The notes below the pieces were generated by a model that was given only the letters and a program-made list of their open reading frames with translations, did no database searches and was not told the origin of the DNA. A stretch of DNA of 64,000 nt from Chitinophagales bacterium (GTDB taxonomy: Bacteria; Bacteroidota; Bacteroidia; Chitinophagales; UBA10324), in assembly GCA_039810885.1 (NCBI GenBank), contig JBDHXV010000009.1, positions 129 through 64,128 on the forward strand. Reading direction: 5' to 3'. How positions within the stretch are numbered: position 1 is the first letter of the stretch; the number at the start of each line of letters is the position of its first letter. A program made the translations under genes and the position numbers. Below are positions 124-63,670 of the stretch, piece by piece.

Positions 124-3100
124 CTAAACTGCTTCAGCTTCTTGTAACTGGCGAAAATCAACAGGTACCACTTTAGAAACTCCTTCTTCCTGCATCGTTA
201 CACCATAGATGACATCTACCGATGCCATAGTTTGCTTATTGTGTGTTACAAGAATAAACTGTGATTTATTGCTAAACTGACGAATGATATCTGTGAATTT
301 ACCTACGTTGGCATCATCCAGCGGAGCATCAACCTCATCCAAAACACAGAATGGGGCAGGCTTTAACAGATATAATGCGAACAGCAACGATATGGCCGTA
401 AGTGTTTTTTCTCCACCGGAGAGTTGATTAATGGTTTGTGGGCGTTTCCCTTTGGGCTTTGCTATGATATCAATTGTAGATTCCAGTGGGTTATCTGAGT
501 TGCTGAGTATTAAATCACACGTATCTTCTGCCGTAAAGAGACTTCGGAAAACTTCAATGAAGTTCTCTTTTACTTGATTGAATGCATTCATAAATTGCTC
601 ACGTGCTTTGGATTCAATTTCATCCATAGTACTCAACAAGGATTCCTTTGCAGTTACCAAGTCATTTTTCTGACTCTGAATAAATTCGGCCCGTTCTTTC
701 ATCTCATTAAAGGCTTCTATGGCAAACGGATTGATTTCACCAAAATTTTCAAGCCTGTTCTTCATTTTATTGGCCTTCTCGCTTAAGTCGTCTTTATTTA
801 AGTCCGCTGCAGGCTCTTGCTCCATCAAGGTATCGATAGATACCTTGAACTCTATGTCGAGACGTTCTTTCAACGAAGCCAGCTGAAGTCTTAAATCATT
901 TACCTTATCCCGCATCTCGTTCAGCAACACGTCGCAATGATCTTTTTGCTTGCCAATATTCTTGATACTTTCATCCATCTGATTCATAATGCCACGGCTT
1001 TCATAGAAGATACGATCGGCCTCGGTAACCAGCAAATCTTGTCTGGTACGGTCTTCATATAGCATTATCAACTCAGCCTCGGTTTCATTTTGCTTGGCTT
1101 CTAATTCAATAAATTGGTGCGAAGCGGCTCCCAGTTCAATATTATTGCGCTCAACATTACGTGTATTTTCATCTAACTGAAGTCGCTTAAAATTAATTTC
1201 TTGTACCAGGGCGTTAATTTTATTCTGTTGTTGAAGAAACGAAATATTATTTTGATTAAACAGTTGAGACGACTCATTCAACAGGTCATCTATGGCTTGA
1301 AAGGCGTGCTGCGCATCGGTAATTTTTACTTGTTGGTGATCTCTCACAGTTTGTTTTTGTGAAATAATACCCGTTAGCATTGTTAAATCTGCTTCAATAC
1401 TTGTATTACGTTCTATGATTGAATTTTTCTTTATATCAAAATCAATGTAGAAACGATCAATATTCTCAACTTTCGTTTTGATTCCCGTTATTTGATTACG
1501 AGTCAAGTTGTAGACCTCACGCAAAGCATCTAATTGCTTGTCGTGATTCTGACTCTTCATCATGACTAGTTCTTGTTGTAATTGTTGCAAAGTGCTTCGC
1601 AACTGCTCTGTGTCGTTTTTTAGTTGTCCGATTTCCTTATTCAGGTTTTCCAGATTTTTAACGCGGCCAAGTCGTTTACCTCCTGCAACACCCACCTGCC
1701 CGCCGCTGATGGAATGCTTCGTGCGAATAAATTTTCCGTTGCCGGCTATGAATGTGGCCTTAACTTCCGGCAGAGCCTGCTGCTCATCTATGATGTAAAC
1801 ATTTTTTAACAAATAGTTTACTAAGTGCCGGTAGGGCTCTTCGCACTCAACCACATCAATAGCACGTGTGGCATTATTTAAAGATTCGGTTGTTTCTTTT
1901 TCATTTTCAAAATCATTCAATACAAAAAAGTTTGCACGCCCTTTAGCAGCATTGCTCAGCAGGTTTACGGCTTGCATGGCTTCTCGCATATCACTCACGA
2001 CGTAGTAATTCAAATAAGGTTCTAAATAACTCTCGATGATTATGCGGTACTCGCTTTGTGCGCTGATAATATCCGAGAGCAAAGGCGCTTGCTTATTCCA
2101 GTCTTTATTGTTTTTTAAAAACTTGATCGAATCAGGAAAGCCTTCCATGTTTTCAATAAAGTTCTTGGTCAGGTTGTATTCATTTTGTCGCGCATCAAGG
2201 CTGCGATGCTTGGCGTTAAGTTGTTCACGAACTTCATTTACACGTTCTTCCAACTTTGTAATTTGTTGTTGCGAGGAGTCGGCTAATTGTGTAAGTTGAT
2301 GAATGTCCTGATGTTCTTTAATTTCTTTTTGTTCTAATGCTATCAACTGCTCAGCCAGGTGTGTTTTTTCATCGTTGCGCTGCTGCAACTCGTATTCGTT
2401 CACTTGAGTTTCACGTTGAAGATTCTCCTTTTGCACTTTAAGTACGGTTATTCGTTTCTCCAAATCAATCACTTCGTTTTCAACAGCACGCATCTGTTGT
2501 TGTTCTTGCTCTAAGGAACGTTTTGCTTGCGTGTGAAGCAGGCGCACATCATCTAATTTCAACTTCGTTTGCTCTAACTCTGCTTGAAATTGAGTAAGCG
2601 TATTTTCTTCTGCCGTTTTACGTTCAGTAAAGGAAGCTATGGAAATCTCGAGTGTCTGTATTGTTTGCTTCGATTGTTCATTCTGTAACTTCCAGGCTTC
2701 TACTTTTTCATTTAAATGCTTGAGATTCTCTCCGATCAGTTTCTTATCATTTTCTTTTTGCTTGAGATAACTTACCAATTCATTAAGCTGACGTTGCAGT
2801 AATAAGAGATTCTTTTCTTTTTCAAGAAAGTCGGTTTTCTCGGCTTGTAGTTCAGCCTCCAATCGCAACATTTCGGTTTCCAAGACAATCTTTTTATCCA
2901 TCTGCTCGGCTTGTTGAGTTTGAATATTTTCAAAGACAACTTTAAAGTCTTTCAAATGATGCAATGCCAGTTGGATACTTAATTCTTTATACTCCTCTTT
3001 CAGTTTGTGATAGCGTTCTGTTTTGCGTGCTTGGTTTTCCAGTGTTTTTAGGTTGTTGTCAATTTCAAACAGCAGATCTTCTACGCGGTTCAAATCGGCT

Positions 3101-3654
3101 TGTGTAGCCTCCAGCTTATTAAGGGTTTCTTTTTTGCGAGCTTTATATTTAGAAATTCCCGCCGCTTGCTCAAATAGCTTACGGCGACTGTTGTCTTTAT
3201 CATTCAAAATTTCATTTACCATTCCCAGTTCTATGATAGCATAAGAGTCGCTGCTTATACCTGTATCCAAAAAAAGGTTAGTAATGTCTTTTAACCGACA
3301 GCTCACATTGTTTAGCCTGTATTCACTTTCGCCCGTGCGATAGTAATGACGACTAATGGTGACTGTATTATATTCAGTTGGCAGTAAATTTTTGTTGTTT
3401 TCAAAAGTCAAAAACACTTCGGCCAGTGCTGACGGCTTACGATTCTTAGTTCCATTAAAAATTACGTTCTCCATTTTTTCAGAGCGTAAGACCGATGTTT
3501 TTTGCTCGCCCAATACCCATCGCATGGCATCCACCACATTGGATTTCCCGCAACCATTAGGGCCAACGACACCTGTCATATTCTCATTGAAATGAATAAC
3601 CGTTTTCTCGGCAAATGATTTAAAACCCTTAATTTCTAAACTGACTAATTTCAA
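124..3654 (-). CDS. smc: Chromosome segregation protein SMC
   Basis: 1176-aa ORF. N-terminal Walker A (GPNGCGKSN), very long coiled-coil arms and a central hinge. C-terminal signature QLSGGEK and Walker B LDEVDAPLD. Confidence 0.95.
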   Translation of the reverse strand: MKLVSLEIKGFKSFAEKTVIHFNENMTGVVGPNGCGKSNVVDAMRWVLGEQKTSVLRSEKMENVIFNGTKNRKPSALAEVFLTFENNKNLLPTEYNTVTISRHYYRTGESEYRLNNVSCRLKDITNLFLDTGISSDSYAIIELGMVNEILNDKDNSRRKLFEQAAGISKYKARKKETLNKLEATQADLNRVEDLLFEIDNNLKTLENQARKTERYHKLKEEYKELSIQLALHHLKDFKVVFENIQTQQAEQMDKKIVLETEMLRLEAELQAEKTDFLEKEKNLLLLQRQLNELVSYLKQKENDKKLIGENLKHLNEKVEAWKLQNEQSKQTIQTLEISIASFTERKTAEENTLTQFQAELEQTKLKLDDVRLLHTQAKRSLEQEQQQMRAVENEVIDLEKRITVLKVQKENLQRETQVNEYELQQRNDEKTHLAEQLIALEQKEIKEHQDIHQLTQLADSSQQQITKLEERVNEVREQLNAKHRSLDARQNEYNLTKNFIENMEGFPDSIKFLKNNKDWNKQAPLLSDIISAQSEYRIIIESYLEPYLNYYVVSDMREAMQAVNLLSNAAKGRANFFVLNDFENEKETTESLNNATRAIDVVECEEPYRHLVNYLLKNVYIIDEQQALPEVKATFIAGNGKFIRTKHSISGGQVGVAGGKRLGRVKNLENLNKEIGQLKNDTEQLRSTLQQLQQELVMMKSQNHDKQLDALREVYNLTRNQITGIKTKVENIDRFYIDFDIKKNSIIERNTSIEADLTMLTGIISQKQTVRDHQQVKITDAQHAFQAIDDLLNESSQLFNQNNISFLQQQNKINALVQEINFKRLQLDENTRNVERNNIELGAASHQFIELEAKQNETEAELIMLYEDRTRQDLLVTEADRIFYESRGIMNQMDESIKNIGKQKDHCDVLLNEMRDKVNDLRLQLASLKERLDIEFKVSIDTLMEQEPAADLNKDDLSEKANKMKNRLENFGEINPFAIEAFNEMKERAEFIQSQKNDLVTAKESLLSTMDEIESKAREQFMNAFNQVKENFIEVFRSLFTAEDTCDLILSNSDNPLESTIDIIAKPKGKRPQTINQLSGGEKTLTAISLLFALYLLKPAPFCVLDEVDAPLDDANVGKFTDIIRQFSNKSQFILVTHNKQTMASVDVIYGVTMQEEGVSKVVPVDFRQLQEAEAV

Positions 3655-52740: not shown

Positions 52741-52814
52741 ATTTGGTTGTTTACGTATTTGTAGTCTACAACGTTTCTAAGTCCTTTGTAAACGGTTTTA
52801 TCTTCTTCCATTGA

Positions 52815-53336
52815 TTAAGCATTCCCATAAAATGTTCCGTCCATTCCATTAGGGACATTGGATTTAAACCAATAGGCAAAACTTTTTTGTAATGGTTCGT
52901 TAATATCACTTGGTAAGTTTTGTAATTGCGAAAAACCAAAATCTATTTTTTGACTTGTAAAAATGTTTTTCGCAACAGCAATTTGTTGTTTTTGTTCTTC
53001 GGTTGCAAAACTTAAATCTAATCCGTCAAATAAATTTGTAAACGAAATTGGCTCGCTGTCTGCTTCAATGCCTTTAAACGCTTCTAATGGCTTTGCTAAA
53101 TAACACGATGTTCTTTTTTCTGTTGCGTGGTAGGAAAGATAATTGTCGCTAGCTAATTGTTCAACAAATTCAAACTCTTTGTATTTGATGTCTGTTTTAT
53201 CATTTTTCAAGTCAAGCAAATGGGCGTGTGAATAGCAAAACAAAAAGTGATGTTTGTTCGCAAGAAGTTGAGTTAAGAAATTTTGATAAACAGTTTTTTT
53301 CCTGTTTAAAAAGATGACTGAAAATTTGCTTATCAA
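52815..53336 (-). CDS. Hypothetical protein downstream of fic (start ambiguous, possibly frameshifted)
   Basis: 173-aa ORF from a TTG start. An ATG at 53352 that overlaps the fic stop opens a different frame, which would join this ORF if the A7 run (53294..53300) were A6. No domain recognised. Confidence 0.5.
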   Translation of the reverse strand: MISKFSVIFLNRKKTVYQNFLTQLLANKHHFLFCYSHAHLLDLKNDKTDIKYKEFEFVEQLASDNYLSYHATEKRTSCYLAKPLEAFKGIEADSEPISFTNLFDGLDLSFATEEQKQQIAVAKNIFTSQKIDFGFSQLQNLPSDINEPLQKSFAYWFKSNVPNGMDGTFYGNA

Positions 53337-53351
53337 AATAAATTCGTTCCA

Positions 53352-54437
53352 TTATTTTTCTTCCAAAATCTTTAATAGTTTTTCATTCAAATACAATTTC
53401 TCTTTTCCAACCTTTACCGATTTTAAAAAATCGTTTTCTTCTAAAGCAATCAAATAATTTCCGACTGTTTTTAAGTTTCCAATGTTTTCGTCTATCAAGT
53501 GTTGGCGTTTGGTATAAGGTAAACGGAACAAAATTTCAATCAAATCTTTGGAATAAATTTTTGGCAGTTTCTTTTTGATTTCTTCTGCTGTTTTATCCAT
53601 TGTGGTTGTAATTTTGTTCAAGCGTTCCAAACCTTTGTTTGACGTTTCTTCAATCATATCCAACATATACAGAATGTAATTTTCCCAATCATTGCTTTCG
53701 GTTACGCCACGCAAACATTTGTAGTAATCAGTTTTGTGTTTAATGATGTATTCGCTTAAATAAATTGCAGGTGTATCAAGCAAACCCGAAAGTTTGAGAT
53801 ACAACAACAATAAAATTCTTCCTGTTCTTCCGTTGCCGTCCGAAAATGGGTGAATTGCTTCAAACTGATAGTGCATTAATGCCATTTTGATAAGCGGGTC
53901 AATTGTTTCATCTTCATTGATGAATTTTTCCAAATTCGCCAATTTTTCACGGATCACCTTTTCGCCACTTGGTGGTGTGTAAATTACTTCGCCTTGCGTG
54001 TTGCTTAATGTAGTTCCGGGTGTAACCCGAATTGAAGCCGTATTTTGTTTGATACATTGAACAATACTTATACAAAGATTGATTGTGATAAACGGTTTTT
54101 TCTTTAACTGTTCCAAGCCCAACCAAAGAGCCCCTTTGTAACTCAAAACCTCTTTTGTGGCTGAATTTTCTACTTTTCTGTCGGCAACTAACGATTTGTA
54201 AAGCTCATCGTTTGTTGTGATTATGTTTTCTACTTCCGAACTCGCTTTTGCTTCCTGTAAATAAATCGTGTCTAAAAACAAGGTCGGATTAGGCAAATTG
54301 AGCAAAGTTCCATTCAGTTGAGCCAATGCCCTACCTGCCGAAATCGTTTTGCGAAGTATTTCTTTCGTTTCAATATCTGCCTTTGGCGGTAGCAATGGCA
54401 GGTCGTTATACGGTATTTTACGATCAAATTTGCTCAT
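53352..54437 (-). CDS. fic: Fic family protein (class II, AMPylation-type active site) with C-terminal winged-helix
   Basis: Canonical HPFSDGNGRTGR (nt 53817..53852). N-terminal inhibitory-helix-type motif SSEVEN, matching [S/T]xxxE[G/N] (nt 54225..54242). The ATG at 54437 is preferred over the TTG at 54446. Confidence 0.9.
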   Translation of the reverse strand: MSKFDRKIPYNDLPLLPPKADIETKEILRKTISAGRALAQLNGTLLNLPNPTLFLDTIYLQEAKASSEVENIITTNDELYKSLVADRKVENSATKEVLSYKGALWLGLEQLKKKPFITINLCISIVQCIKQNTASIRVTPGTTLSNTQGEVIYTPPSGEKVIREKLANLEKFINEDETIDPLIKMALMHYQFEAIHPFSDGNGRTGRILLLLYLKLSGLLDTPAIYLSEYIIKHKTDYYKCLRGVTESNDWENYILYMLDMIEETSNKGLERLNKITTTMDKTAEEIKKKLPKIYSKDLIEILFRLPYTKRQHLIDENIGNLKTVGNYLIALEENDFLKSVKVGKEKLYLNEKLLKILEEK

Positions 54438-54453
54438 ATTCTTCAAGTGTAAG

Positions 54454-54536
54454 TTTTACCCTCGTTTTTAATACAAGGGCAAAAATACGGAAATTTTACT
54501 CTCGTTCAATAAATGAGGGTAAAAATTACTCTCGTT
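54454..54536 (-). promoter_or_regulatory. Three direct repeats of AACGAG(A/G)GTAA(A/T)(A/T) immediately upstream of fic
   Basis: On the plus strand: TTTTACCCTCGTT (54454..54466), TTTTACTCTCGTT (54494..54506), AATTACTCTCGTT (54524..54536), plus an inverted GAGGGTAAAA at 54515..54524. Possible operator/promoter array. Confidence 0.35.
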
Positions 54537-54687
54537 GCTCAACCAACTTAATTTCTGCCTCTGTAAGCTCATAAAGCTGATACACTAATTCATTAATTTT
54601 ACTTTCTGTATGCTCAATTCTGTGTTTCAATTGCTTGGATTTGCCCGCCAAAATTGTCGTTTGCAGTTCTTTGTTGAACCGCAAAAG
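54526..54687 (-). pseudogene. C-terminal stub of a type IIG/BREX-like DNA methyltransferase-restriction gene
   Basis: Open frame ...LLRFNKELQTTILAGKSKQLKHRIEHTESKINELVYQLYELTEAEIKLVEQRE*. The ...ID.LVY.LYGLTEEEI..VE ending is typical of Eco57I/PglX-type enzymes. The 5' end is cut off by the 28-nt IS-end repeat. Confidence 0.5.
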
Positions 54688-54732
54688 TTGGTCAACCTAT
54701 TTTAGGACGGGACACCATGATGAGTGCTTCTT

Positions 54733-55188
54733 TTACCATAGTAACCTTATATTATCTTCTAAACTCCATCCCATTATTTTTTTGGAATAAGCATCGGTAA
54801 CCACGGCAAGGTAGGCGTGTGCCTCATCCGTTTTGATGTAAGTAATGTCGCTGACAAAGACCTGTTCAGCGTGTTTGATTTCAATATCTTTAATGCGGTT
54901 GGGCGAAGCGTAGAAGAAATGTTTTGAATCGGTAGTGATGTGAAGCCGCTTGGTTTTGCGGATAAGCAACCCGTTGTTTCGCAACAAGGCAAACAGCGCA
55001 TCCCTGCCCATTTTTATTTCCGGTTGTTGCAGATACGGTCTCAGATGCTCACAGAGCTTACGTGTGCCGGTGCGCGGCATTTTTTGTCTTATCTCTGCCA
55101 CTTTCTGTAGCACCACTTCGTTCTTTTCTTCTTTCACTTTTTGCGCTTTAATTCGCTGGTAATACGCTTGTTTGCTAATCCCGAACAC
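54733..55188 (-). pseudogene. IS3-family transposase OrfB, truncated
   Basis: Contains the HTH_21-like segment and the start of the DDE core (FVSDITYI..., LAVVTDAYSKKIMGWSL). It terminates about 140 aa short of a full OrfB. Confidence 0.8.
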
Positions 55189-55202
55189 TTGATACAGCCA
55201 CT

Positions 55203-55586
55203 TTACTTTAAAAGTTTTTTCTTCTTTCGCTGTATCTCGTTTGCCAAGTGTTCGGGTAAAAACTTTTTTGAGAGTTCCATACCCGTTTCCTTTTCAAATT
55301 CAACAATTATGTCTTGCTGAAAGTCTTTGATAAACTCCAGTTCTTCTACCTTTTGGCGTAGCTTTTTGAGTTCTTCGTCTTTGTTCATCGCTTTAGATTT
55401 GGAGTGAAAGTTAGATAGTTTTTTCCGCCAATAGTCAATCGTGCTGCGCGAGATGTTATACTTCTTGGAAGCATAGTTGGCTGAGATCTGTCCGTTGTTG
55501 ATTTGGTCAATGACCGAAATCTTAAAGTCAAAACCGACTTCTTTACCGTTTCTTTTTCGGCAGGGTTGTTTTTCTTGTTTGTCCAT
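55203..55586 (-). CDS. IS3-family transposase OrfA (HTH)
   Basis: 127 aa. HTH (ISANYASKKYNISRSTIDYWRKK) plus a leucine-zipper-like tail. Ends at the frameshift window. Confidence 0.85.
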   Translation of the reverse strand: MDKQEKQPCRKRNGKEVGFDFKISVIDQINNGQISANYASKKYNISRSTIDYWRKKLSNFHSKSKAMNKDEELKKLRQKVEELEFIKDFQQDIIVEFEKETGMELSKKFLPEHLANEIQRKKKKLLK

Positions 55587-55651
55587 AAGTGACCAATGTT
55601 TGTTTTGTTTTTGGTCAACCTATTTTAGGACGGGACACGTCACAGGGTTGC

Positions 55652-55784
55652 CACTAACGTTTTGGGTATTGCCGAAGACGGGGATTTTTAGCACAAAAGT
55701 TCAATCGAAGAACGAATGTTGAACCTTGCACAAATGTCCAATCGAAGCACTTTACCGGCTCTATTGCCAATTTGTTTGTTATGG
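55652..55784. repeat. Cassette-boundary repeat, copy R1 (133 nt)
   Basis: CACTAAC...GTTATGG. About 80% identical by eye to R2 over the first ~100 nt. Contains the motif TTCAATCGAAG twice and an AAGTTCAA/TTGAACCTT stem. Confidence 0.6.
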
Positions 55785-55800
55785 GCAGGTTTTCTTTTCA

Positions 55801-56109
55801 TTATAGTCTTATTGATAAATCCAAATGCCCTCCAAAACCGAGTTCAACTATTTTTTGAAGTGTCGAAATTCGTGCTTCTTTAATGTTGTTTTCAATTTTT
55901 GAAATATACGATTTGGTAGTACCAACTCTGTCGGCAAGTTCTTCTTGTGTCAAGCCTTTTTCAAGTCTTGCTTGTTGAAGCATTACTCCAATTTTAAAGT
56001 TTTCGTAGCCAGCTTCTAATTCGTCACGCTTTTTTGTTCCACGCTTGCCGTAGTTTCTTTCTTTAAAATCTTCGAGCGTCATTAAGTTTTTATTTTTCGT
56101 TTTACTCAT
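55801..56109 (-). CDS. XRE-family HTH antitoxin (HigA-like)
   Basis: 102 aa. HTH LTQEELADRVGTTKSYISKIEN. Lies directly downstream of a RelE/HigB-like toxin gene, the HigBA gene order. Confidence 0.8.
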   Translation of the reverse strand: MSKTKNKNLMTLEDFKERNYGKRGTKKRDELEAGYENFKIGVMLQQARLEKGLTQEELADRVGTTKSYISKIENNIKEARISTLQKIVELGFGGHLDLSIRL

Positions 56110-56120
56110 AACATTATTAT

Positions 56121-56501
56121 TTACTTTTTATTGGTATTCGTGATTTCCAATTCATATTCTGCTTTTATTTTAAGTGCTATTTCAATTTCTTTTTTCGGTG
56201 TCTTTTGAGTTTTCTTCTGAAAGCCATTAGCCAAAACAACTAACTGACCTTTGTCGAAAAAACAGAAAATGCGAAAAATATCACTTCCTAATTTTACTCG
56301 AATTTCGTAAAGTCCGTCTGTGTTCTCTATGTGTTTGAGATATGTTTCTGGAACTCTTTCTAAATCTTCTACCAAGTCAAATGTCCAAACTATTTTCGCT
56401 TTCACATTCTTGTTTTGCTTGTCAAAAAAGGTTTGAAAATAGTCTTTATAAAAAGTTATTGTTCTATATTTCTGTTTTTTATTCACTTTACAAAAATACA
56501 A
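56121..56501 (-). CDS. Type II toxin, RelE/ParE superfamily (HigB / Gp49-like, DUF891)
   Basis: 126 aa with a TTG start. Pattern ...L....P..YLKHI....GLYEIRV..GSDIFRIFCFFD.G.LVVL.NGF.KK.QKTPK.EI..A typical of the phage Gp49-like killer family. Confidence 0.8.
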   Translation of the reverse strand: MYFCKVNKKQKYRTITFYKDYFQTFFDKQNKNVKAKIVWTFDLVEDLERVPETYLKHIENTDGLYEIRVKLGSDIFRIFCFFDKGQLVVLANGFQKKTQKTPKKEIEIALKIKAEYELEITNTNKK

Positions 56502-56577
56502 AAGTTTCTCTTTAGTATAACTATAGCAGATGCTTTTTTTGTTTATTCTTGTCGATGAGATTTTGGCGAAGTGTTCA

Positions 56578-56715
56578 GTTAAACTTGCACATCGGGCCGC
56601 GTGTTGGCGAGGGTGGCACTTTTACTGTATTTTTCAATCGAAGCACAAACTTTGATTCTACAATAAATGTTCAATCGAAGAAGTTTCTGCCACTCTTGCC
56701 AACACGATGTTATGC
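56578..56715. repeat. Cassette-boundary repeat, divergent copy R3 (138 nt)
   Basis: GTTAAAC...GTTATGC. An 18-nt closing stem pairs 56601..56618 with 56688..56705 (16/18). The motif (T)TCAATCGAAG occurs twice and shares GTTCAATCGAAGAA with R1. Confidence 0.45.
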
Positions 56716-56727
56716 GATTGCCGTTTG

Positions 56728-57630
56728 TTAATATTTTTTCCATTCAAAACTTTTATATCCACTCTCTAAAGCCCATTTACGCCAAACAGCTTCAAGTATT
56801 TCGTTATCTCTTAGACCTAATGGATTTTTATATGTTTGTAATTTAGTGTTTTTATCTCTTTCGGCTGTTTCTAAGATATGTAGGTTTATATATTTGTTTT
56901 TGTCATTTTTTATAGGTGTTAAACATAAAGTTGAATTATTTCTAAGGGCTGTTTCTATATCAACACTATTTGATTTACAATATCGTCTTATTTCATCAAT
57001 TTCAAGCTCACCGAAATAAAATTGATTATTACTCCTTTTACCATAATATTCGAGATAACCGTCTGTGAAAATATATATGTGATTATCGTAATTTATATAG
57101 GTAGTATCAATCCCATTAGTTAAAAGCGTGTTTTTCTTGATAAGGGACTTGTTTTCTATTTTATCGGCTAAAATGCTAATCAAATCCATTCCTTTATCTT
57201 GAATGTTAGCATAAGCATCACTTGCTTTTTGTTTTAAGACATCTATTTCATAGTCTAAACCTTTGCCCTCATATTCTCCTGTTGAATTGATAAATTTTTG
57301 TTTACTACCTAAATCTTTAATTTTATTTATATCAATGGTGTATTTAACTTCATCAGAAAAAGTTGAGAAATAAAGGGATGATTTGTCTCCAATTTTTTCA
57401 CCTGGCTTAACACATTCGTTCCTAAAAAAGTTGAGAATCTTATTTATCTCCGCAAGGTCTTTAGGAGGAGATTGTTGGTTTATAACTGTGCCATTTATTT
57501 TTGGTTCTATTCTATCAGTCATATCTGAAAGAATAACTATATTTTGATATGTCAGTGTTTTATTTTGCGGTTCAGGCATACAAGATTGCAACAATAATGA
57601 AGTTGCAAAAAAGAATAATAATTTCTTCAT
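56728..57630 (-). CDS. Hypothetical lipoprotein (weak vWA-like features)
   Basis: 300 aa. Lipobox LLLQSC. Strands NIVILSDMTDR and HIYIFTDGYLEY resemble vWA beta1 and beta4 motifs (weak). Separated by 8 nt from the end of the PLD-TM gene. Confidence 0.55.
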   Translation of the reverse strand: MKKLLFFFATSLLLQSCMPEPQNKTLTYQNIVILSDMTDRIEPKINGTVINQQSPPKDLAEINKILNFFRNECVKPGEKIGDKSSLYFSTFSDEVKYTIDINKIKDLGSKQKFINSTGEYEGKGLDYEIDVLKQKASDAYANIQDKGMDLISILADKIENKSLIKKNTLLTNGIDTTYINYDNHIYIFTDGYLEYYGKRSNNQFYFGELEIDEIRRYCKSNSVDIETALRNNSTLCLTPIKNDKNKYINLHILETAERDKNTKLQTYKNPLGLRDNEILEAVWRKWALESGYKSFEWKKY

Positions 57631-57637
57631 TTTCAGA

Positions 57638-59545
57638 CTAACGATTATTTGTGACTACTTGTTCTATTGCTTGAACTCTGTTTGTAACTTCTTTTTCTGC
57701 ATAAAGTTCAGGCAGGTATTCAATGTAGCCTGTTTTATACGCTGTTGAAACACTATTTAGGATTTCATCAGTAAAGATTTTCCCACTGGTAATACGAGTC
57801 ATAAAATCATCGTAAATCGCCTTTAGATTTTTTTGTAGTTCTGTAAATAGATTTTCAATATTATTTTGCTGTTTATTTAATTCTTTTTCTAATCGTTCTA
57901 ATACATCATTTTTCTGTTTTATAGATTCGTCCTTTTCTTTAATTTCTTTTAAAAGAAGCTCTTTATTTAGATTCAAATCAAGTAATGCTTTATCTAACAT
58001 TTCGATTTGTTTATTCTTTTCAGCATCAACCAATTGAAGTTGAGATTTTTGGTAAGCATTAACTATATATTCTATGATAAAGTGTGTAATTATTAGTGGT
58101 AACATCCCAAAAACAAAAATGAGCCAAAACTCTCCGTGCTTCACTACTTCCCAAATTTGAAGTTGTGATTCTTTGCCAATTAATAAACTCTTTATCTCAT
58201 CTGTATTCATCGCAACCATTACGGCAACTATAATGTCAAAAATTAAAACGCCAACCCAAAAACTTAAAATATTGACCCACTTCTTTTTGCTCCCAAAGAG
58301 TTTTAAATTTGATAATGAAATTGGAATTAAAAAGAATAAACCTGCCATAATGCCAAATAAAGTTCCTTGCATTTTAAAGATTTTTACGATTGCATTAGCA
58401 TCCACAAGCTGCGGAAGACCCGGGTTTATTCCTGCTTCCAAAGAATTACGAATTACATTTCCTTCAAAAAACACTTTGTACATTGCTGAAGCAAAAAACA
58501 TTGACAAATAATAAATAAAAACTGTTAACCCTAATATTGCAAAGACAGTCCCAACCGACCAAAACTTTTTAATTACAAAGGATGATTCTAATGAGTTTCT
58601 TTCTAATTTATTTTTTTCAATTTCATTATTTATTTGAAGTAGTCCTTTTTCTCCCGTGCTTTTGTTGCCTGATTCAAGGATTGATTTTTCTTGTTTTAAA
58701 TCAGTGATTTTTGAGTTTGCTTGTCGTAGTTCTATTTCATTATTTGAATTTATTTTGTTGATTTCATTTTGTTTGTCTGTGTCTATTTCAGCTTTCTTAC
58801 TTTCAAAGGCAGATTTGATATTTTGAGAGATTATATTTTTCTTACTACTCAAACTGTCGTCAGTTGCAAACATTTTTATTTGCTCTTTGATTTCGTCATA
58901 ATGCGTTTTAAATATATCTATACTACCTGAGCTTTCCTTTGAATTATCATAGCCTTGTTTTCTATAGCTTTCAGTATTTATGTTTGCTGTTGTATAAATT
59001 AAATTTGATAGTTGTTGCGTAAAAGAGTCAGCCGTGTCTATTGGTTGTACTGTTTTTGTTTTTGTAATAACTTGTTCCATAGGATTTGCTGAATTTATGT
59101 TTACATCTATTTGGTGGTCAATATTATATTTCAGTCTTTCAAATTCAGCAAATAGTTGTCGATATGTATTTAAATCATCTGTTACTTGAATGTTTTCAAC
59201 ATTATTGTTGCTTGCATTATATGAATAATTATAAGAACCATTTATTGAAATTCTATTATCAATAAGGCAGAACTTGTGATGCATCATTCCTCTTTCATCT
59301 CCTGTTTCAAAGGCGTGAATACTTATGTTTTCAGCTTTGAACATTTGTTTTACGGTCTCATTTTGAGCGTTTGATGAAAGGATAATATCTACCGTAATAT
59401 TTCGCTTTTTTGCATTGATGATAGCATTGGCTATATCTCTATCGGTAAACCAAGCCATAGCCACGAATATATTTTGGTTTGCCTTTTCAATTTCGGAAAT
59501 TATTCGTTGTTTTATTTCTGTTCCGTTCGTTATAATATCATTCAT
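57638..59545 (-). CDS. Membrane-embedded PLD-family (single HKD, Nuc-like) protein with coiled coils
   Basis: 635 aa. Residues 1-140 are a PLD-like domain with a complete HxKx4Dx6GSxN motif (HHKFCLIDNRISINGSYN, nt 59228..59281). Residues ~150-325 are a polar/coiled-coil region. Four predicted TM helices span residues ~328-495 (nt 58061..58564). Residues ~500-635 are coiled coil. Confidence 0.8.
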   Translation of the reverse strand: MNDIITNGTEIKQRIISEIEKANQNIFVAMAWFTDRDIANAIINAKKRNITVDIILSSNAQNETVKQMFKAENISIHAFETGDERGMMHHKFCLIDNRISINGSYNYSYNASNNNVENIQVTDDLNTYRQLFAEFERLKYNIDHQIDVNINSANPMEQVITKTKTVQPIDTADSFTQQLSNLIYTTANINTESYRKQGYDNSKESSGSIDIFKTHYDEIKEQIKMFATDDSLSSKKNIISQNIKSAFESKKAEIDTDKQNEINKINSNNEIELRQANSKITDLKQEKSILESGNKSTGEKGLLQINNEIEKNKLERNSLESSFVIKKFWSVGTVFAILGLTVFIYYLSMFFASAMYKVFFEGNVIRNSLEAGINPGLPQLVDANAIVKIFKMQGTLFGIMAGLFFLIPISLSNLKLFGSKKKWVNILSFWVGVLIFDIIVAVMVAMNTDEIKSLLIGKESQLQIWEVVKHGEFWLIFVFGMLPLIITHFIIEYIVNAYQKSQLQLVDAEKNKQIEMLDKALLDLNLNKELLLKEIKEKDESIKQKNDVLERLEKELNKQQNNIENLFTELQKNLKAIYDDFMTRITSGKIFTDEILNSVSTAYKTGYIEYLPELYAEKEVTNRVQAIEQVVTNNR

Positions 59546-59591
59546 ACTTTGTATTTAATGTTTTTATTGGTTGCAATTTCTTTTAGGTATC

Positions 59592-59911: not shown

Positions 59912-60535
59912 TCATTTTAATGCTTTTACTTTTTCAATAGTTATTATTTGGTTGCTCTCAATTACCTTTACTGTCGGTGGTTCTGAAAATTTGTAGGATT
60001 TAAGTTCCTCTATGAGTTCATTAAATTCATTACTTGTCGCTACTATAACATTGTCAAGTCCAATTACGTCACCACTTTTTATTTTTGCTTTTACACTTTT
60101 CGCTTCATTTACTTCAAGTGTTACTAAGAAACTTAATGCCTTTCGGTGAACGTATTTTAAAGCAATTGCTTCTAGGTCGGCTTGCTTATATCGTTCACGT
60201 AAACTTGTTTTTGCTGAAATACAAATTGGTCCTCTTTCTGCTGTGTAAAACATTAAGTCGTAAATTACGTTTGGCACGAATGCAACTTTAGCACTCATAT
60301 AAAGAGGTAAAATATTTTCCCTAACACACAAAGTCGCAAGTATGTATTCAAAGATTTTTCCATTAAGGTTGTTGTTTCCTTCAGGGTGTTTTTGAAATGC
60401 TTCCCAATACGTTGAAATATAGTCAGAAGGCTTTTTGTATTTTACATTTAAAAAACTCGGGAACAAACTGTCAAAAACGACTTCTGCCTTGTTGTTTGCA
60501 CCTACTGTTATTCCTAATTGATTTAGTTTACTCAT
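59912..60535 (-). CDS. Putative type II restriction endonuclease, CCGG-family (Cfr10I/NgoMIV/SsoII-like PD...SxK...E fold)
   Basis: 207 aa. Overlaps the methyltransferase C-terminal fragment by 4 nt. Has IYD(93)L, ISAK(109)TSLRER and E122. The pattern D...SxK, then an acidic residue 13 aa after the Lys, then R-E-R directly after the Lys, matches my recollection of CCGG-family enzymes. Confidence 0.55.
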   Translation of the reverse strand: MSKLNQLGITVGANNKAEVVFDSLFPSFLNVKYKKPSDYISTYWEAFQKHPEGNNNLNGKIFEYILATLCVRENILPLYMSAKVAFVPNVIYDLMFYTAERGPICISAKTSLRERYKQADLEAIALKYVHRKALSFLVTLEVNEAKSVKAKIKSGDVIGLDNVIVATSNEFNELIEELKSYKFSEPPTVKVIESNQIITIEKVKALK

Positions 60536-60954
60536 TTTAAGATTTTGATTTTAACTGCTTTTAAAACTTGCTCTGCGGTTGCTTGAATAGCTGGAACAGC
60601 AACGGAGTTGCCGAATTGCTTATATGCGGAAGCATCAGCAACCGGAATTAAAAAACTGTCAGGGAAGCCTTGAAGCCTTGCCCATTCTCTTGGTGTCATT
60701 TTGCGAATTCCTTCTCTGTTTACTGTTCCTTTTATGTGAGTTGTCGGAGTGAAATCCGTAATACGATTGTCAATTACTAAATTTCTTTCTCGTCCCATAC
60801 TACCTACAACTATTGCATTTGCAATCTCTATGTCTGGAATTATTTCGTAACCAAAACCATTTCCTTTTCCTTCGTGTCTTGCCTTGTGGTTTACAAGTGT
60901 CTGCACATATTGGGTTGATAAGAAATATTTTGGGTGTGCCCCTATCGGGTCGGG
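60532..60954 (-). pseudogene. m5C DNA methyltransferase, C-terminal part (TRD + motifs IX-X), M.HpaII-like
   Basis: The frame is open from the TAG at 60955. Clear similarity begins at PKYFLSTQYVQTLVNHKARHEGKGNGFGYEII. Motif IX is RKMTPREWARLQGFPDSF and motif X is QFGNSVAVP. There is no ATG; the only in-frame start-like codon is the GTG at 60906. Confidence 0.85.
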
Positions 60955-61030
60955 CTATTCGCTCCAAGTCCTCGGCTTCGTTTCTCAGCCTGTGGGCTTT
61001 TCGCTTCTATCCCTCACACGACAGTACCTT
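60932..61030. repeat. Inverted-repeat arm A of the cassette
   Basis: GGGTGTGCCCCTATCGGGTCGGGCT... The 17-nt perfect core (60940..60956) is the reverse complement of 62066..62082. Contains the hairpin GGCT-TCGTTTCTC-AGCC (60974..60990). Confidence 0.7.
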
Positions 61031-61217
61031 CAACAATATAGCACTCTAACCAACCAATAGTTTCATTAACACCTTTAATAAAAGCATCTAATTCAGACTT
61101 GGTTTCAAAACTAAATTCCTTTTCATTAATAGTTTTTTCGTCAATAGAAAATGGAACATCAGATAAGAATTTGTTTACTTGTTCTTTGCCGAATATGATT
61201 TTGACTTTATGCTTCAT
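61014..61217 (-). CDS. Hypothetical 67-aa protein, translationally coupled to the HNH gene
   Basis: Its ATG overlaps the HNH stop by 4 nt. No recognisable domain. Its 3' end runs into IR arm A. Confidence 0.45.
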   Translation of the reverse strand: MKHKVKIIFGKEQVNKFLSDVPFSIDEKTINEKEFSFETKSELDAFIKGVNETIGWLECYIVEGTVV

Positions 61218-61984
61218 TTGTTAAAAATATTTTGATGATGGTATTCTAAAAATTCTATTGATGGACTAAATCTATCAGGTAAAACGATTGGTTGATTTTC
61301 GTATTCAAGAAAATATTTTTGAATGTTTTTTTCTTTTCGTTTTTCTAAAATAGCATCAGATAACTTAACCTTAAAATCTGAGGTTATGGTTATTAAACCC
61401 TTATCAAATGCTTTATCGTGGATATTATTTAAACAAATACCATTTTTAGGATTTAATCTTTCTTTTGTGTTTTTTGACCAAGGAATTATATGGCTTGCAA
61501 CTAACAAAGAAGTAATAGAAATACCTGTAATACTACACCTTTCATTGTATGATGCTAAAATTCTTTGACGAAAATCAGTTTGATTAACTCTTGTTCTTAC
61601 AAGCCGTTCTTTCTCTCTTCCATCAGCAAATTTTAATTCTGGCTCTAATTCAAGTATTTCTTCAATTGGTTTGTTTTGAATAGTTGAAAGTATAGCTGAA
61701 CTATCAAGTGCTAATTTTTCCCACTGTCCAAAATATTCGTTCCAAATTTCTTTATCTGATGAACTTGCCGCACTTTTACCCTTATTTCCAATTTTTTGTT
61801 TTTCAGCATCAAGGCTTGTAAAATTCATTAATTTGTAGGCTAATGCAGCAGGTGTTCTATCAATAATTGGAGCTAACTTTTTTATTTCAGAATTAGAACT
61901 ACCACTAATTTTGTTGTAAGGGATTTTCCAATAAAGATTTAATGCTACAATTAACTGTTCTCTATTCCAATTATCTCTTGCCAT
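61214..61984 (-). CDS. HNH endonuclease (HNH_2 / putative restriction-endonuclease type)
   Basis: 256 aa. C-terminal RVNQTDFRQRILASYNERCSITG...LVASHIIPW....RL.P.NGICLN.IHDKAFDKGLITI is the typical His-Asn-His nuclease core of that family. Confidence 0.85.
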   Translation of the reverse strand: MARDNWNREQLIVALNLYWKIPYNKISGSSNSEIKKLAPIIDRTPAALAYKLMNFTSLDAEKQKIGNKGKSAASSSDKEIWNEYFGQWEKLALDSSAILSTIQNKPIEEILELEPELKFADGREKERLVRTRVNQTDFRQRILASYNERCSITGISITSLLVASHIIPWSKNTKERLNPKNGICLNNIHDKAFDKGLITITSDFKVKLSDAILEKRKEKNIQKYFLEYENQPIVLPDRFSPSIEFLEYHHQNIFNK

Positions 61985-61990
61985 AAACTA

Positions 61991-62887
61991 CTATGCTGCG
62001 TTTTGCGTTAGGGATTGAAGTGGAAATCCTTTTTGTGAGGAACGAACAAAAAGATTGGAACGGAAAGCCCGACCCGATAGGGAAACGCCCAAATAGTCTT
62101 TACGGAATCCAACAATATAAATTCTTTCTCTATTTTGTGGAACGCCATACTCCTTTGCGTTTATAATTTGCGGTTCTGGAACAAAATAATCAAGGTCGTT
62201 GCGTAAAACATTTAAGATTGTTTCCAATGTTTTTCCTTTGTCGTGGCTTCTTAAACCTTTTACATTTTCTAAAAAGATTGCTTTGGGTTTGTGTTTTTTG
62301 ATAATTTCTGCAACGTCAAAAAATAGTGTCCCTCTTGTGTCGTCAAAGCCCCCACGCTTGCCGGCAATTGAAAATGCTTGACAAGGAAAACCTGCACACA
62401 AAACATCAAAACCGTCCGGAATGAACATTTTAGTTTGTTCTTTAGTAATGTCACCAAATGGAACTTCACCAAAATTTGCTCTGTATGTTCTCTGTGCTTC
62501 TTTGTCCCACTCACTGGTAAAAACACATTTACCGCCTAAATTTTGCATTGCCATTCTGAAACCACCAATGCCGGCAAATAAGTCTATGAATTTGAATGTA
62601 TAATTTTCAGGTGTTGGAAAAGGAACGTCATTTACTTCAAAAAGTAATTGTTGCAAAGCATCTTCTGCAACCATTGAAAGATTGTTTTCTTCCTCTTGGA
62701 ATTGAACATATTCCTTCAAATATTTCATAGCATCTTTCTTGAAATGCTTTGCTACTCCATTATCAATATTGTGGAGATAATGGGTAATCACAGCTTTCTT
62801 GTGATTAGCCGGAACTGCTTCAACTAATCTGATTTGAAACCGCTTTCCGTCAAACTCGTCAATTGATATTTTTTCTTTCAGTTTCAT
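61991..62887 (-). pseudogene. m5C DNA methyltransferase, N-terminal part (motifs I-VIII), M.HpaII-like
   Basis: Motif I FIDLFAGIGGF, motif IV GFPCQAFS, motif VI ENVKGL, motif VIII QNRERIYIVGF. After ...RKDY (about nt 62093) the frame runs through IR arm B for 33 unrelated codons to a TAG. Confidence 0.9.
61995..62090. repeat. Inverted-repeat arm B of the cassette
   Basis: The reverse complement reads GGGCGTTTCCCTATCGGGTCGGGCT... 28/34 matches to arm A from the outer GGG, with weaker similarity out to ~90 nt. Contains the hairpin AATCTTTTTGT-TCGTTCCTC-ACAAAAAGGATT (62025..62056). Confidence 0.7.
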
Positions 62888-63290
62888 TTATAGTCTTTTG
62901 AATTTTATTAATGCACTTGTCTAGATTTTTTGTAATGTCTTTACCCCAAAATCTTAATACTTTCCAACCTTCTGCAATAAGTTTTTCGTTAACCTCATTT
63001 TCTCGCTCTATGTTGCGTTCAATTTTTGTCAGCCAAAATTCTTGATTGCTTTTATGGTCAAACTTTCTGGTTTCCCAATCTTTTCCGTGCCAAAACTCGC
63101 TGTCAACAAAAACAGCAAGTTTATATTTCTTAAAGGTTAAATCGGGCTTTCCAAAAACTGTTCTGTCATTCTTTCTATATCGCAAACCTTGAGCAAACAA
63201 AGCTTTTGCAAGAGCAGTCTCAATCTTAGAGCCGGAGGCTCTAATTGCTTGCATATTCTTTCTTCTTTGTTCTACAGTTAGCTTGTCCAT
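62859..63290 (-). CDS. vsr: Very short patch repair endonuclease
   Basis: 143 aa. Has R..NM..I.....K.E......L...G.RYR.....GKPD......K.A.FVD..FWHG, as in Vsr. Overlaps the methyltransferase start by 29 nt. Confidence 0.93.
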   Translation of the reverse strand: MDKLTVEQRRKNMQAIRASGSKIETALAKALFAQGLRYRKNDRTVFGKPDLTFKKYKLAVFVDSEFWHGKDWETRKFDHKSNQEFWLTKIERNIERENEVNEKLIAEGWKVLRFWGKDITKNLDKCINKIQKTINETERKNIN

Positions 63291-63294
63291 AGTT

Positions 63295-63534
63295 CTACTT
63301 TTCTACAACTTTAAATTCATAGTCAAGGAAAATTGAAAAGCGAACCAAATAGTCAACCGTAATACTGAATTTTCCGTTTTCAATTTTTGAAATTGTCGAA
63401 CGGTTAATGTTCATCAGTTCTGCTAATTGTTCTTGGCTGTAACCTCTTTGTTCTCGAACAATTCTAATTTTGTCGCCAAGTTTTAGCCGATAATCTTTTA
63501 TTTGATTTTCTGTTGCCGTTAATTCTGCGTTCAT
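63295..63534 (-). CDS. XRE-family HTH protein (possible RM controller/C protein)
   Basis: About 80 aa from the ATG at 63534 (the track ORF extends to 63606). HTH YSQEQLAELMNINRSTISKIENG. Lies 4 nt upstream of vsr. Confidence 0.75.
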   Translation of the reverse strand: MNAELTATENQIKDYRLKLGDKIRIVREQRGYSQEQLAELMNINRSTISKIENGKFSITVDYLVRFSIFLDYEFKVVEK

Positions 63535-63670
63535 AGAATTGTATGTTAATTCACAAATAAAGTTCCTGTGTGTTCTGTGCCGTTTTCGTCTTGAATTGTA
63601 AGCCAAACATTAGTTTCAACTCCTTTAACTCCTTTTGTCAAATCGAGCATAATTTTCTGTTCGCTCACTT

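Follow-up and report, generated by a model that had tools for sequence, protein, structure and literature searches.

Inverted Flavo-1 repeats bound a nuclease gene cassette that splits a 5-methylcytosine methyltransferase gene in a Chitinophagales bacterium

The stretch of DNA analysed here (the window) is 64 kb of a Chitinophagales bacterium (contig JBDHXV010000009.1, positions 129 to 64,128); coordinates are those of the whole 64-kb window, and L-numbers are labels of the genome and metagenome loci with which it was compared. It holds a minus-strand operon in which an HpaII-family gene for a 5-methylcytosine (m5C) methyltransferase is split by an insert. The operon reads Vsr, methyltransferase N-half, HNH_2 open reading frame (ORF), 67-aa ORF, methyltransferase C-half, restriction gene; the ends of the insert are two inverted arms, both of which are copies of an orphan Rfam motif, Flavo-1 (RF01705). 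In the list, R1 is a covariance model built from 13 related arms.

62859-63290, minus strand: Vsr very-short-patch repair endonuclease, operon gene 1 (Pfam PF03852, E 6e-31)
61991-62887, minus strand: m5C methyltransferase N-half (PF00145 profile positions 1-165, E 1.5e-73)
61989-62103, plus strand (antisense to the operon): upstream arm, Flavo-1 copy (RF01705 60.2 bits, E 4e-12; own model R1 124.9 bits)
61214-61984, minus strand: HNH_2 ORF, 256 aa (PF13391, E 3e-12)
61014-61217, minus strand: 67-aa ORF, overlapping the HNH stop by 4 nt
60919-61035, minus strand (sense with the operon): downstream arm, Flavo-1 copy (RF01705 32.4 bits, E 2e-4; R1 106 bits)
60532-60933, minus strand: m5C methyltransferase C-half, with the target-recognition domain (TRD) and motifs IX and X (PF00145 profile positions 202-323, E 7.5e-20)
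59912-60535, minus strand: restriction endonuclease, CCGG family, 207 aa, its start overlapping the stop of the methyltransferase C-half

A first-pass annotation of this DNA had described a methyltransferase gene split after motif VIII by an insert of ~1.17 kb, and the ORFs and PF00145 profile matches agree: motifs I-X are all present but spread over two ORFs, profile positions 166-201 are missing, and the cassette site is the linker between motif VIII and the TRD. Equally sound was its account of the insert, which carries the HNH_2 ORF (256 aa) and the overlapping 67-aa ORF in the orientation of the host gene (minus strand), and of the inverted arms, in which 60929-60967 and 62055-62093 are 85% complementary over 39 nt and the 17-bp perfect core, checked directly, has 60940-60956 as the reverse complement of 62066-62082; by our estimate, chance would give ~1e-4 such matches per 2.2 kb. 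The extended similarity that it had seen covers ~115 nt per arm, the span of the covariance-model matches (61989-62103, plus strand; 60919-61035, minus strand). The upstream arm matches RF01705 at 62000-62078 (plus strand), above the 42-bit gathering score, and its 3' end (ACGCCCAAAT) points outward into the methyltransferase gene. The downstream arm scores below the gathering score, its 3' end likewise points outward, and it shows the other common subtype of distal hairpin (GCCCACAG...GAGGAC), so that the arms differ in subtype within the window, of which they are the sole Flavo-1 copies. The insert is a two-gene cassette without a visible promoter, bounded by an inverted “tail-out” Flavo-1 pair.

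Codons 1-265 of the N-half (62093-62887) are genuine methyltransferase sequence with motifs I-VIII, and the last 33 (61991-62092; LGVSLSGRAF...QNAA) are encoded by the antisense Flavo-1 arm. The N-half stops at TAG TAG, 6 nt ahead of the HNH ATG (window junction letters TAGTAGTTTATG); at the far side of the cassette, the TGA stop of the 67-aa ORF falls within the 5' edge of the downstream arm. A near-identical 33-aa arm-encoded tail (LGVSLSGRAFRSNLFVRSSQKGFPLQSLTQNAA) sits on the N-half in the window (61991-62092), L001-L003, L005, and L022. The F-x-(F/Y)-P-x-P segment reported as missing is indeed absent: uninterrupted L007, L019, and L026 have ~29 extra residues there. Two further remarks on the junctions survive in part. 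The arithmetic of an in-frame 1168-nt deletion is right, but the end points chosen for it are arbitrary; and the TATTT noted at both junctions contains a real shared ATTT, but this is not a target-site duplication, because the ATTT beside GGGCG belongs to the arm end ...ACGCCCAAAT in all copies of an alignment of 13 arms and ~80 solo copies. The junctions substitute 7-29 target codons without duplicating the target. Set against insertion sequences and MITEs (miniature transposable elements with inverted repeats), the arm pair provides terminal inverted repeats; there is no target-site duplication at the cassette junctions and no transposase among the cassette ORFs (HNH_2 nuclease and 67-aa ORF), and the label “transposon-like” is therefore unsupported.

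How general is this layout? The HNH protein has >4000 homologues; we examined 18 genome loci, further genomic contexts, and two metagenome loci. At loci of close homologues, the point at which the ORF ceases to be methyltransferase coincides exactly with a Flavo-1 copy (L001-L009, L014, L022-24, L036, and L096), and cassettes adjoin methyltransferase ORFs at eight distinct positions:

~residue 113: L008, L014, L159-162
FGDI: L036
ENVK: L024
GFRKD: the window, L001-3, L005, probably L006
ADIK: Vaginella massiliensis, L022/23
GFPDD: L007
in an unrelated m5C methyltransferase: L096
at the end of a Dam-class methyltransferase, with a DpnI-family gene next: L032

At all eight junctions, host gene and cassette point the same way, TTG-GGC-GTT is the frame in which the host ORF runs into the antisense arm (one shared frame over eight junctions has an estimated chance of ~(1/3)^7), and the host ORF stop ends 0-13 nt before the first ATG of the cassette, as TAAAATG in four loci. 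A downstream arm is found only where the remainder of the host gene succeeds the cargo: in the window, L002, L003, L022/23, and L024. Complete genomes of the cultured Vaginella massiliensis have N-half, arm, orf69, HNH, arm, C-half, and a full-length 358-aa R.HpaII; the junction there lies ~24 codons further on, FNYPKP is retained, and ~7 codons are replaced. L032 (2562-5314, minus strand) is the same junction design with a different methyltransferase class and nuclease: a D12 Dam-class methyltransferase, complete, runs on in frame into a Flavo-1 copy in antisense; directly behind it lies a “Dam-replacing” gene of the DpnI family, with an N6_N4 methyltransferase next. A search for other copies and empty sites yielded both related cassettes and uninterrupted alleles, the latter, empty at the window site, in L007, L019, L020, L025, L026, and L027. 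An HNH cassette bounded by inverted repeats and associated with methyltransferases, as proposed at first pass, is upheld; the repeats are not of a new type, since the arms are Flavo-1.

What, then, is Flavo-1? The original description, from 2010, made it a candidate structured RNA and reported only its taxonomy (Weinberg et al. 2010, PMC2864571), and in a Flavobacterium transcriptome its matches fall in sense, antisense, and outside transcribed regions (PMC9723704). From 120 metagenome loci sampled by a 3'-core pattern we scanned 80 with the covariance model, and nearly all pattern matches in these 80 are full-length copies; in Bacteroidota, Flavo-1 is widespread, mostly solo and intergenic, away from HNH genes. 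The conserved unit (GCGTnAGGGAT ... AGCCCGACC, mini-hairpin, n'ACGCCCAAA) is longer than the Rfam model, to which it adds a closing helix, a variable 3' mini-hairpin, and a conserved ACGCCCAAA tail; the closing helix, GCGTn / n'ACGC, covaries through T-A, G-C, A-T, and C-G pairs. Over 77 copies, in an alignment fitted to the model and thus biased toward the structure, 89.7% of cells are paired versus 75.9% in shuffles and 33-48% in slid controls, 18 of 26 pairs show double changes, and 0 of 500 shuffles attain the observed values. The arm structure is supported by this covariation, not by thermodynamic folding, which is unremarkable for single arms (z-scores -0.2 to -2.0). G-U pairs are almost absent from the 77-copy alignment and the fold is therefore possible on both strands, which suggests a DNA-level, strand-symmetric element rather than a small RNA (sRNA). 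In the window, the closing stems are GCGTT/AACGC upstream and GTGTG/CACAC downstream, and mismatches arise between the arms; each arm keeps its own closing stem at the cost of inter-arm mismatches, and what selection preserves is therefore the fold within each arm and not pairing between the two.

Inverted Flavo-1 pairs also exist without an HNH gene, abutting or 15-264 nt apart, and six of six share the tail-out geometry:

L100, 6629-6894: pair 15 nt apart
L047, 1-255 and 3464-3709: two pairs, both abutting
L029, 1213-1746: pair
L134, ~2930-3270: pair
L053, 2433-3966: pair

Those of L100, L047, L029, and L134 are cargo-less. Between the Flavo-1 copies of L053 lies a 394-aa Rpn-like ORF, and a PDDEXK_2 “transposase” (235 bits) adjoins a Flavo-1 doublet in L047. 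Rpn-like PDDEXK_2 genes were considered as a Flavo-1 mobiliser and rejected, since they adjoin or lie within Flavo-1 pairs in only three loci, too few. The HNH gene is a weak candidate for a dedicated, RAYT-like Flavo-1 enzyme: it is present at two of 120 Flavo-1 loci, and HNH homologues at 58-75% identity occur without Flavo-1.

The type of the interrupted system is read from its last gene. The 207-aa protein gave an empty PDB sequence search and a weak Pfam RE_BsaWI match; only its predicted fold identified it (AlphaFold model with predicted local distance difference test score, pLDDT, 75.6 and predicted template-modelling score, pTM, 0.78; best PDB folds Ecl18kI, probability 1.00, E 8e-4, and Kpn2I, 0.99). 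As it folds like CCGG-family enzymes, the locus is a Vsr-M-R system of CCGG type. The cassette's HNH protein (PADLOC PDLC04132, 292 bits) consists of an all-alpha N-domain (~residues 1-110) and a C-terminal HNH domain; its invariant residues include H165, N181, and H189. Of known enzymes, VcaM4I and TagI, both 5mC-dependent, come closest to the HNH domain, as does the ScoMcrA-type model: it matches PDB 6yex (VcaM4I) at E 6e-13 over residues 121-212, NCBIfam PT-DNA_restrict (ScoMcrA-type) gives 65.7 bits versus a cut-off of 180, and the top Foldseek matches of the protein are VcaM4I and TagI, but weak. The N-domain, predicted by AlphaFold as all-alpha with block-mean pLDDT 60-93, contains no SRA, EVE, or other PUA-type reader and has no Pfam or significant PDB fold match. 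The 67-aa ORF has no match in Pfam, NCBIfam, or PADLOC; it is conserved in L001-L003, L009, and L024, with a ratio of nonsynonymous to synonymous substitution rates (dN/dS) of 0.11-0.20.

CCGG-family restriction-modification genes or fragments are linked to the HNH gene in 19 of 22 distinct genome or assembly loci examined, the exceptions being L015, L016, and a Hymenobacter plasmid (L154). Plasmid and phage collections contain no close HNH relative (best identity 42%). The R.HpaII genes of L006 (4960-5721), L010 (5313-6074), and L017 (4796-5575) are without the first 104 profile positions; all three proteins start at Pfam position 105 with their own ATG and are under purifying selection. L155-L158 (4001-6077) have HNH, an 81-aa ORF, and an R.HpaII-family gene without any methyltransferase. 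These loci, the three with the shorter R.HpaII included, may represent a distinct system rather than wreckage. A Cfr10I-like fragment lies near the HNH gene in L013. In Neisseria gonorrhoeae (L153, NZ_CP119142.1 370365-379096; filed as a plasmid but, at 2.17 Mb, evidently a chromosome), the order is pheS, Vsr, a truncated methyltransferase, a 113-aa ORF, HNH, pheT; the methyltransferase is truncated at motif IV, the HNH homologue (249 aa) is 42% identical, and there is no Flavo-1. The pheS-pheT locus of N. meningitidis holds NmeDI (RCCGGY) (PMC7973814).

Can the methyltransferase still work in two pieces? M.AquI is a working two-polypeptide m5C methyltransferase split in its variable region (PMC3404938), and the window gene is divided at the same place, motifs I-VIII from TRD plus IX-X, with all catalytic motifs present. 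Selection was estimated as NG86 dN/dS: 0.05-0.09 for the N-half versus L001-L003, 0.10-0.18 for the C-half overall (its first 45 codons versus L003 have dS 0.82 and dN 0.034), 0.03-0.04 for the restriction gene, and 0.05-0.06 for HNH. Purifying selection acts on the two methyltransferase halves as well as on the restriction and cassette genes. The imprecise junctions are common to the window, L002, and L003, and the split is therefore older than their divergence. The two Vaginella strains are set apart by 8 synonymous and 2 missense changes in the N-half; elsewhere in the locus they are almost identical. Because both halves are under purifying selection and the Vaginella split stands beside a full-length R.HpaII, the window gene probably encodes a working two-polypeptide enzyme, as in M.AquI.

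The history of the window allele can be read from its relatives. The L024 backbone is 90-95% identical to that of the window (98% at the protein level for the restriction enzyme), and its cassette differs: the HNH is 51% identical, there is an extra upstream ORF, the site is after ENVK rather than GFRKD, and the FEYPKP segment missing from the window is retained. A different cassette at a different site on a shared backbone makes the window and L024 separate events in one gene lineage. At ~3590-3640, L024 has a 13-nt frameshifting deletion at the “standard” site, its own cassette lying ~200 nt upstream; the deletion could be an excision footprint. Sliding-window identity delimits a further feature:

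60760-62430: gene-conversion tract (approximate)

This ~1.65-kb tract takes in the cassette and, beside it, ~320 nt from the N-half and ~150 nt from the C-half. Inside it, the window is 85-92% identical to L003 and 75% identical or unalignable to L024; outside it (from Vsr to ~62430, and from ~60760 through the restriction gene), identity is 90-95% to L024 and 66-83% to L003. The window allele is a recombination mosaic, an L003-like tract in an L024-like backbone; the interrupted allele has therefore been copied by homologous recombination into another backbone. In the same region, the upstream arm is ~95-97% identical to the L003 arm beside neighbouring genes with dS 0.6-1.4, and dS of the arm region is near 0-0.04 among the window, L002, and L003. 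Between L008 and L014, the cassette region has dS 0.05-0.4 and the adjacent chromosomal gene 1.28; the lower value therefore points to recent exchange.

The explanation that we consider best overall, and on balance expect to be right, is a Flavo-1-bounded nuclease cassette in a methyltransferase gene, with coupled expression, a split methyltransferase, and recombinational spread. Translation of the host gene would pass through the antisense arm and end just before the first ATG of the cassette, whose genes would be expressed by translational coupling; the methyltransferase would still work as two polypeptides, in the manner of M.AquI; and the cassette, presumably mobile to judge from the alleles compared, would spread among methyltransferase alleles via homologous recombination, helped, it may be, by a break made by its own nuclease. 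A number of observations weigh against this account. The argument for coupling is a geometric one, and the cassette has neither a target-site duplication nor a transposase. The C-half is without a conserved canonical start codon: in the window, the sole canonical in-frame start is a GTG at 60906, ten codons in; L003 has GTT at that codon, with a TTG in its arm, ATT is the annotated start in Vaginella, and the codons ahead of the GTG are under coding selection. The first-pass suggestion of a naturally split methyltransferase gains indirect support from purifying selection and from the same layout beside intact restriction genes, but finds no conserved start for its C-half. The window type also lacks the ~29 residues found in uninterrupted relatives, L002 has a frameshift within the first 33 C-half codons, and in Vaginella massiliensis LT593747.1 (L023 position 2994) GAA->TAA ends the N-half at codon 10. 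Most HNH loci hold the wreck of a restriction-modification system, with a truncated methyltransferase, and often a truncated restriction gene too, in L001, L005-L008, L010, L012-L014, L017, L036, and N. gonorrhoeae. Intact restriction genes stand beside badly broken methyltransferase genes in L024, L025, and L027, and it is therefore unsafe to argue that the methyltransferase is functional where the restriction gene is intact. With alleles recombining, finally, some of the constraint seen in the low dN/dS could be older than the split. Many ATG-started stand-alone C-half genes were considered as proof of a naturally split family and rejected: the short proteins checked were GTG calls, scaffold gaps, frameshifts, and contig ends. 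Uninterrupted family members are often frameshifted beside intact restriction genes (L150-L152, L025, L027, L026); an identical frameshift after GFRKDL recurs in three independent assemblies, with assembly error, decay, or phase variation as possible causes.

Several of these points are what a decaying system would leave behind, one whose methyltransferase was inactivated by the insertion, so that its halves would be pseudogene fragments and the nuclease alone would still be selected. Most related HNH loci hold just methyltransferase or restriction-gene fragments; the uncertain C-half start, the lost residues, the L002 frameshift, and the broken L024 methyltransferase all fit, as does the relaxed restriction gene of L008/L014 (dN/dS 0.23). 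Decay is nonetheless unlikely for the window. It has the same imprecise junctions as L003, and over the first 45 C-half codons the two have diverged at half of all synonymous positions while their amino acids have hardly changed; in-frame stops and frameshifts are absent from both halves in the window, L003, and Vaginella CP171010, the restriction gene is constrained, and the methyltransferase retains all its catalytic motifs. We give no greater credence to a second alternative, in which CCGG-family m5C methylation is the target of an HNH protein that acts as a modification-dependent (type IV-like) nuclease, and the modules persist only where the cognate system is disrupted or displaced. The relationship of the HNH domain to VcaM4I, TagI, and the ScoMcrA-type NCBIfam model speaks for it, and the CCGG-linked loci, including pheS-pheT of N. 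gonorrhoeae, together with L032, where a Flavo-1 junction joins a Dam-class methyltransferase and a DpnI-family gene, suggest such “methylase-replacing” nucleases; this conflicts with the apparently live restriction-modification system of the window. Functional-looking methyltransferase halves and a restriction gene beside an intact HNH (window, L003, Vaginella) would be self-toxic, the all-alpha N-domain shows no SRA, EVE, or PUA fold and no PDB match, and the Dam-class methyltransferase domain of L032 is complete.

If the cassette moves by recombination, does its nuclease drive the movement? A homing endonuclease would cleave uninterrupted methyltransferase alleles, and break repair would copy the cassette and its flanks, in the style of intron-less homing. 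Occupied and empty alleles do coexist in the family, with co-converted flanks of ~320 and ~150 nt, and the cassette region of L008 versus L014 is much younger than the flanking chromosome; but the mosaic is expected from homing and equally from ordinary recombination after DNA uptake, cassettes occupy many positions in the methyltransferase gene and also lie beside restriction-gene fragments without a methyltransferase, which does not fit a single recognition site, and the HNH_2 domain matched restriction-type rather than homing-endonuclease families. We regard homing as rather improbable. Far less probable still is the first-pass alternative of an RNA-level intervening sequence, in which transcript-level pairing of the arms would let splicing or ribosomal bypass unite the halves. 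The arms are complementary enough for this, and a C-half without a conserved start yet under coding selection would be explained; but cmscan of 60400-62600 with E up to 10 gave, besides Flavo-1, chance-level small nucleolar RNA and microRNA matches and no group I, group II, or ribozyme model. Pairing is kept within the arms, not between them: covariation maintains each arm's own stem (T-A in one arm, G-C in the other) at the price of mismatch, and the distal hairpins differ in subtype. The frame offset between the halves is, in our reading, unlike in the window and L003, and the N-half ORF carries its own conserved stop codon. A bolder extension of the favoured cassette account, which we think doubtful, would have Flavo-1 as no sRNA but the DNA-level end of a REPIN-like mobile unit, a tail-out inverted doublet, with the promoterless nuclease cargo of some doublets inserted co-oriented and in frame into DNA methyltransferase genes so as to hijack host translation, and the modification-dependent cargo nucleases (HNH_2; DpnI-family in L032) targeting the methylation of the interrupted gene. 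If true, the cassettes would be “methylase-hunting” defence or selfish modules that turn restriction-modification loci into type IV loci.

Known systems share parts of this layout. The window arms resemble Flavo-1 as described (RF01705) in their hairpin with conserved internal loops and Bacteroidota distribution; unlike the candidate sRNA under which the motif is filed, they are inverted cassette boundaries inside a coding gene. REP/REPIN sequences with RAYT are also short structured repeats, mostly solo and intergenic but found in inverted doublets too, which can enclose a single-copy nuclease-type gene; here, by contrast, the flanked gene is HNH_2 (PF13391) rather than the Y1 HUH transposase (RAYT), the element lies in frame inside a protein-coding gene, and HNH accompanies few Flavo-1 loci. 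With phage free-standing homing endonuclease genes, the cassette has in common a nuclease gene without intron or intein, occupied and empty alleles, and flank co-conversion; it differs in its structured inverted repeats, its many positions, the in-frame splitting of an ORF, and a nuclease domain that resembles restriction enzymes. M.AquI and M.EcoHK31I are split after motif VIII as well, with a C-part of ~125-140 aa holding the TRD and motifs IX-X (PMC3404938). The window split, by contrast, was made by a cassette, as close relatives have a continuous methyltransferase gene; its activity is putative and its C-half start ambiguous. We know of no nuclease cassette or structured repeats reported between the subunit genes of M.AquI or M.EcoHK31I. 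In the Neisseria dam-replacing gene (drg) and the pneumococcal DpnI/DpnII cassettes, a nuclease gene replaces or interrupts the methyltransferase gene of a restriction-modification system, and PF06044 bears the name “Dam-replacing”; L032, which links a DpnI-family gene to a Dam-class methyltransferase via a Flavo-1 junction, is alike, whereas in the window the two methyltransferase halves persist along with the restriction gene, and the modification dependence of its HNH is putative. Rickettsia palindromic elements are palindromic repeats in frame within host ORFs; in the window, the host ORF instead terminates in the repeat and cargo genes come next, which is no simple in-frame peptide insertion. 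A structured-repeat doublet around a promoterless nuclease cassette fits none of the known kinds compared, and our literature search found no description of this layout; the earlier statement that no described element has it holds as far as the literature was searched. We rate the locus as a selfish or mobile gene cassette of a new variant form.

The surroundings of the operon are themselves variable. Directly upstream is one more ORF:

63295-63606, minus strand: HTH_3 (Xre-type) ORF (Pfam PF01381, E 9e-16)

It is possibly the controller protein of the operon; L024 also has a similar HTH ORF upstream of Vsr, and the two Vsr proteins share 94% amino-acid identity. The operon lies within a variable island (window 52800-59550) that holds a PLD-domain protein of 635 aa whose DrmC-like matches are weak (57638-59545), a Gp49/HigB-like toxin ORF (56121-56501), a Fic protein (53352-54446), and IS3-type transposase fragments (54733-55586).

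Flavo-1, an orphan since 2010, gains here its first concrete genomic role, as the boundary of gene cassettes. The loci speak of recurrent remodelling of restriction-modification systems, in which co-oriented, single-frame nuclease cassettes in methyltransferase genes are followed by allele-to-allele recombination. They also provide what is probably a natural, evolutionarily maintained m5C methyltransferase split at the motif VIII/TRD linker, a region also exploited by M.AquI and by fragment-complementation experiments (PMC3404938). Lastly, they tie a family of HNH_2 nucleases to methylation systems of CCGG type, in Bacteroidota and in Neisseria, by which its specificity becomes testable.

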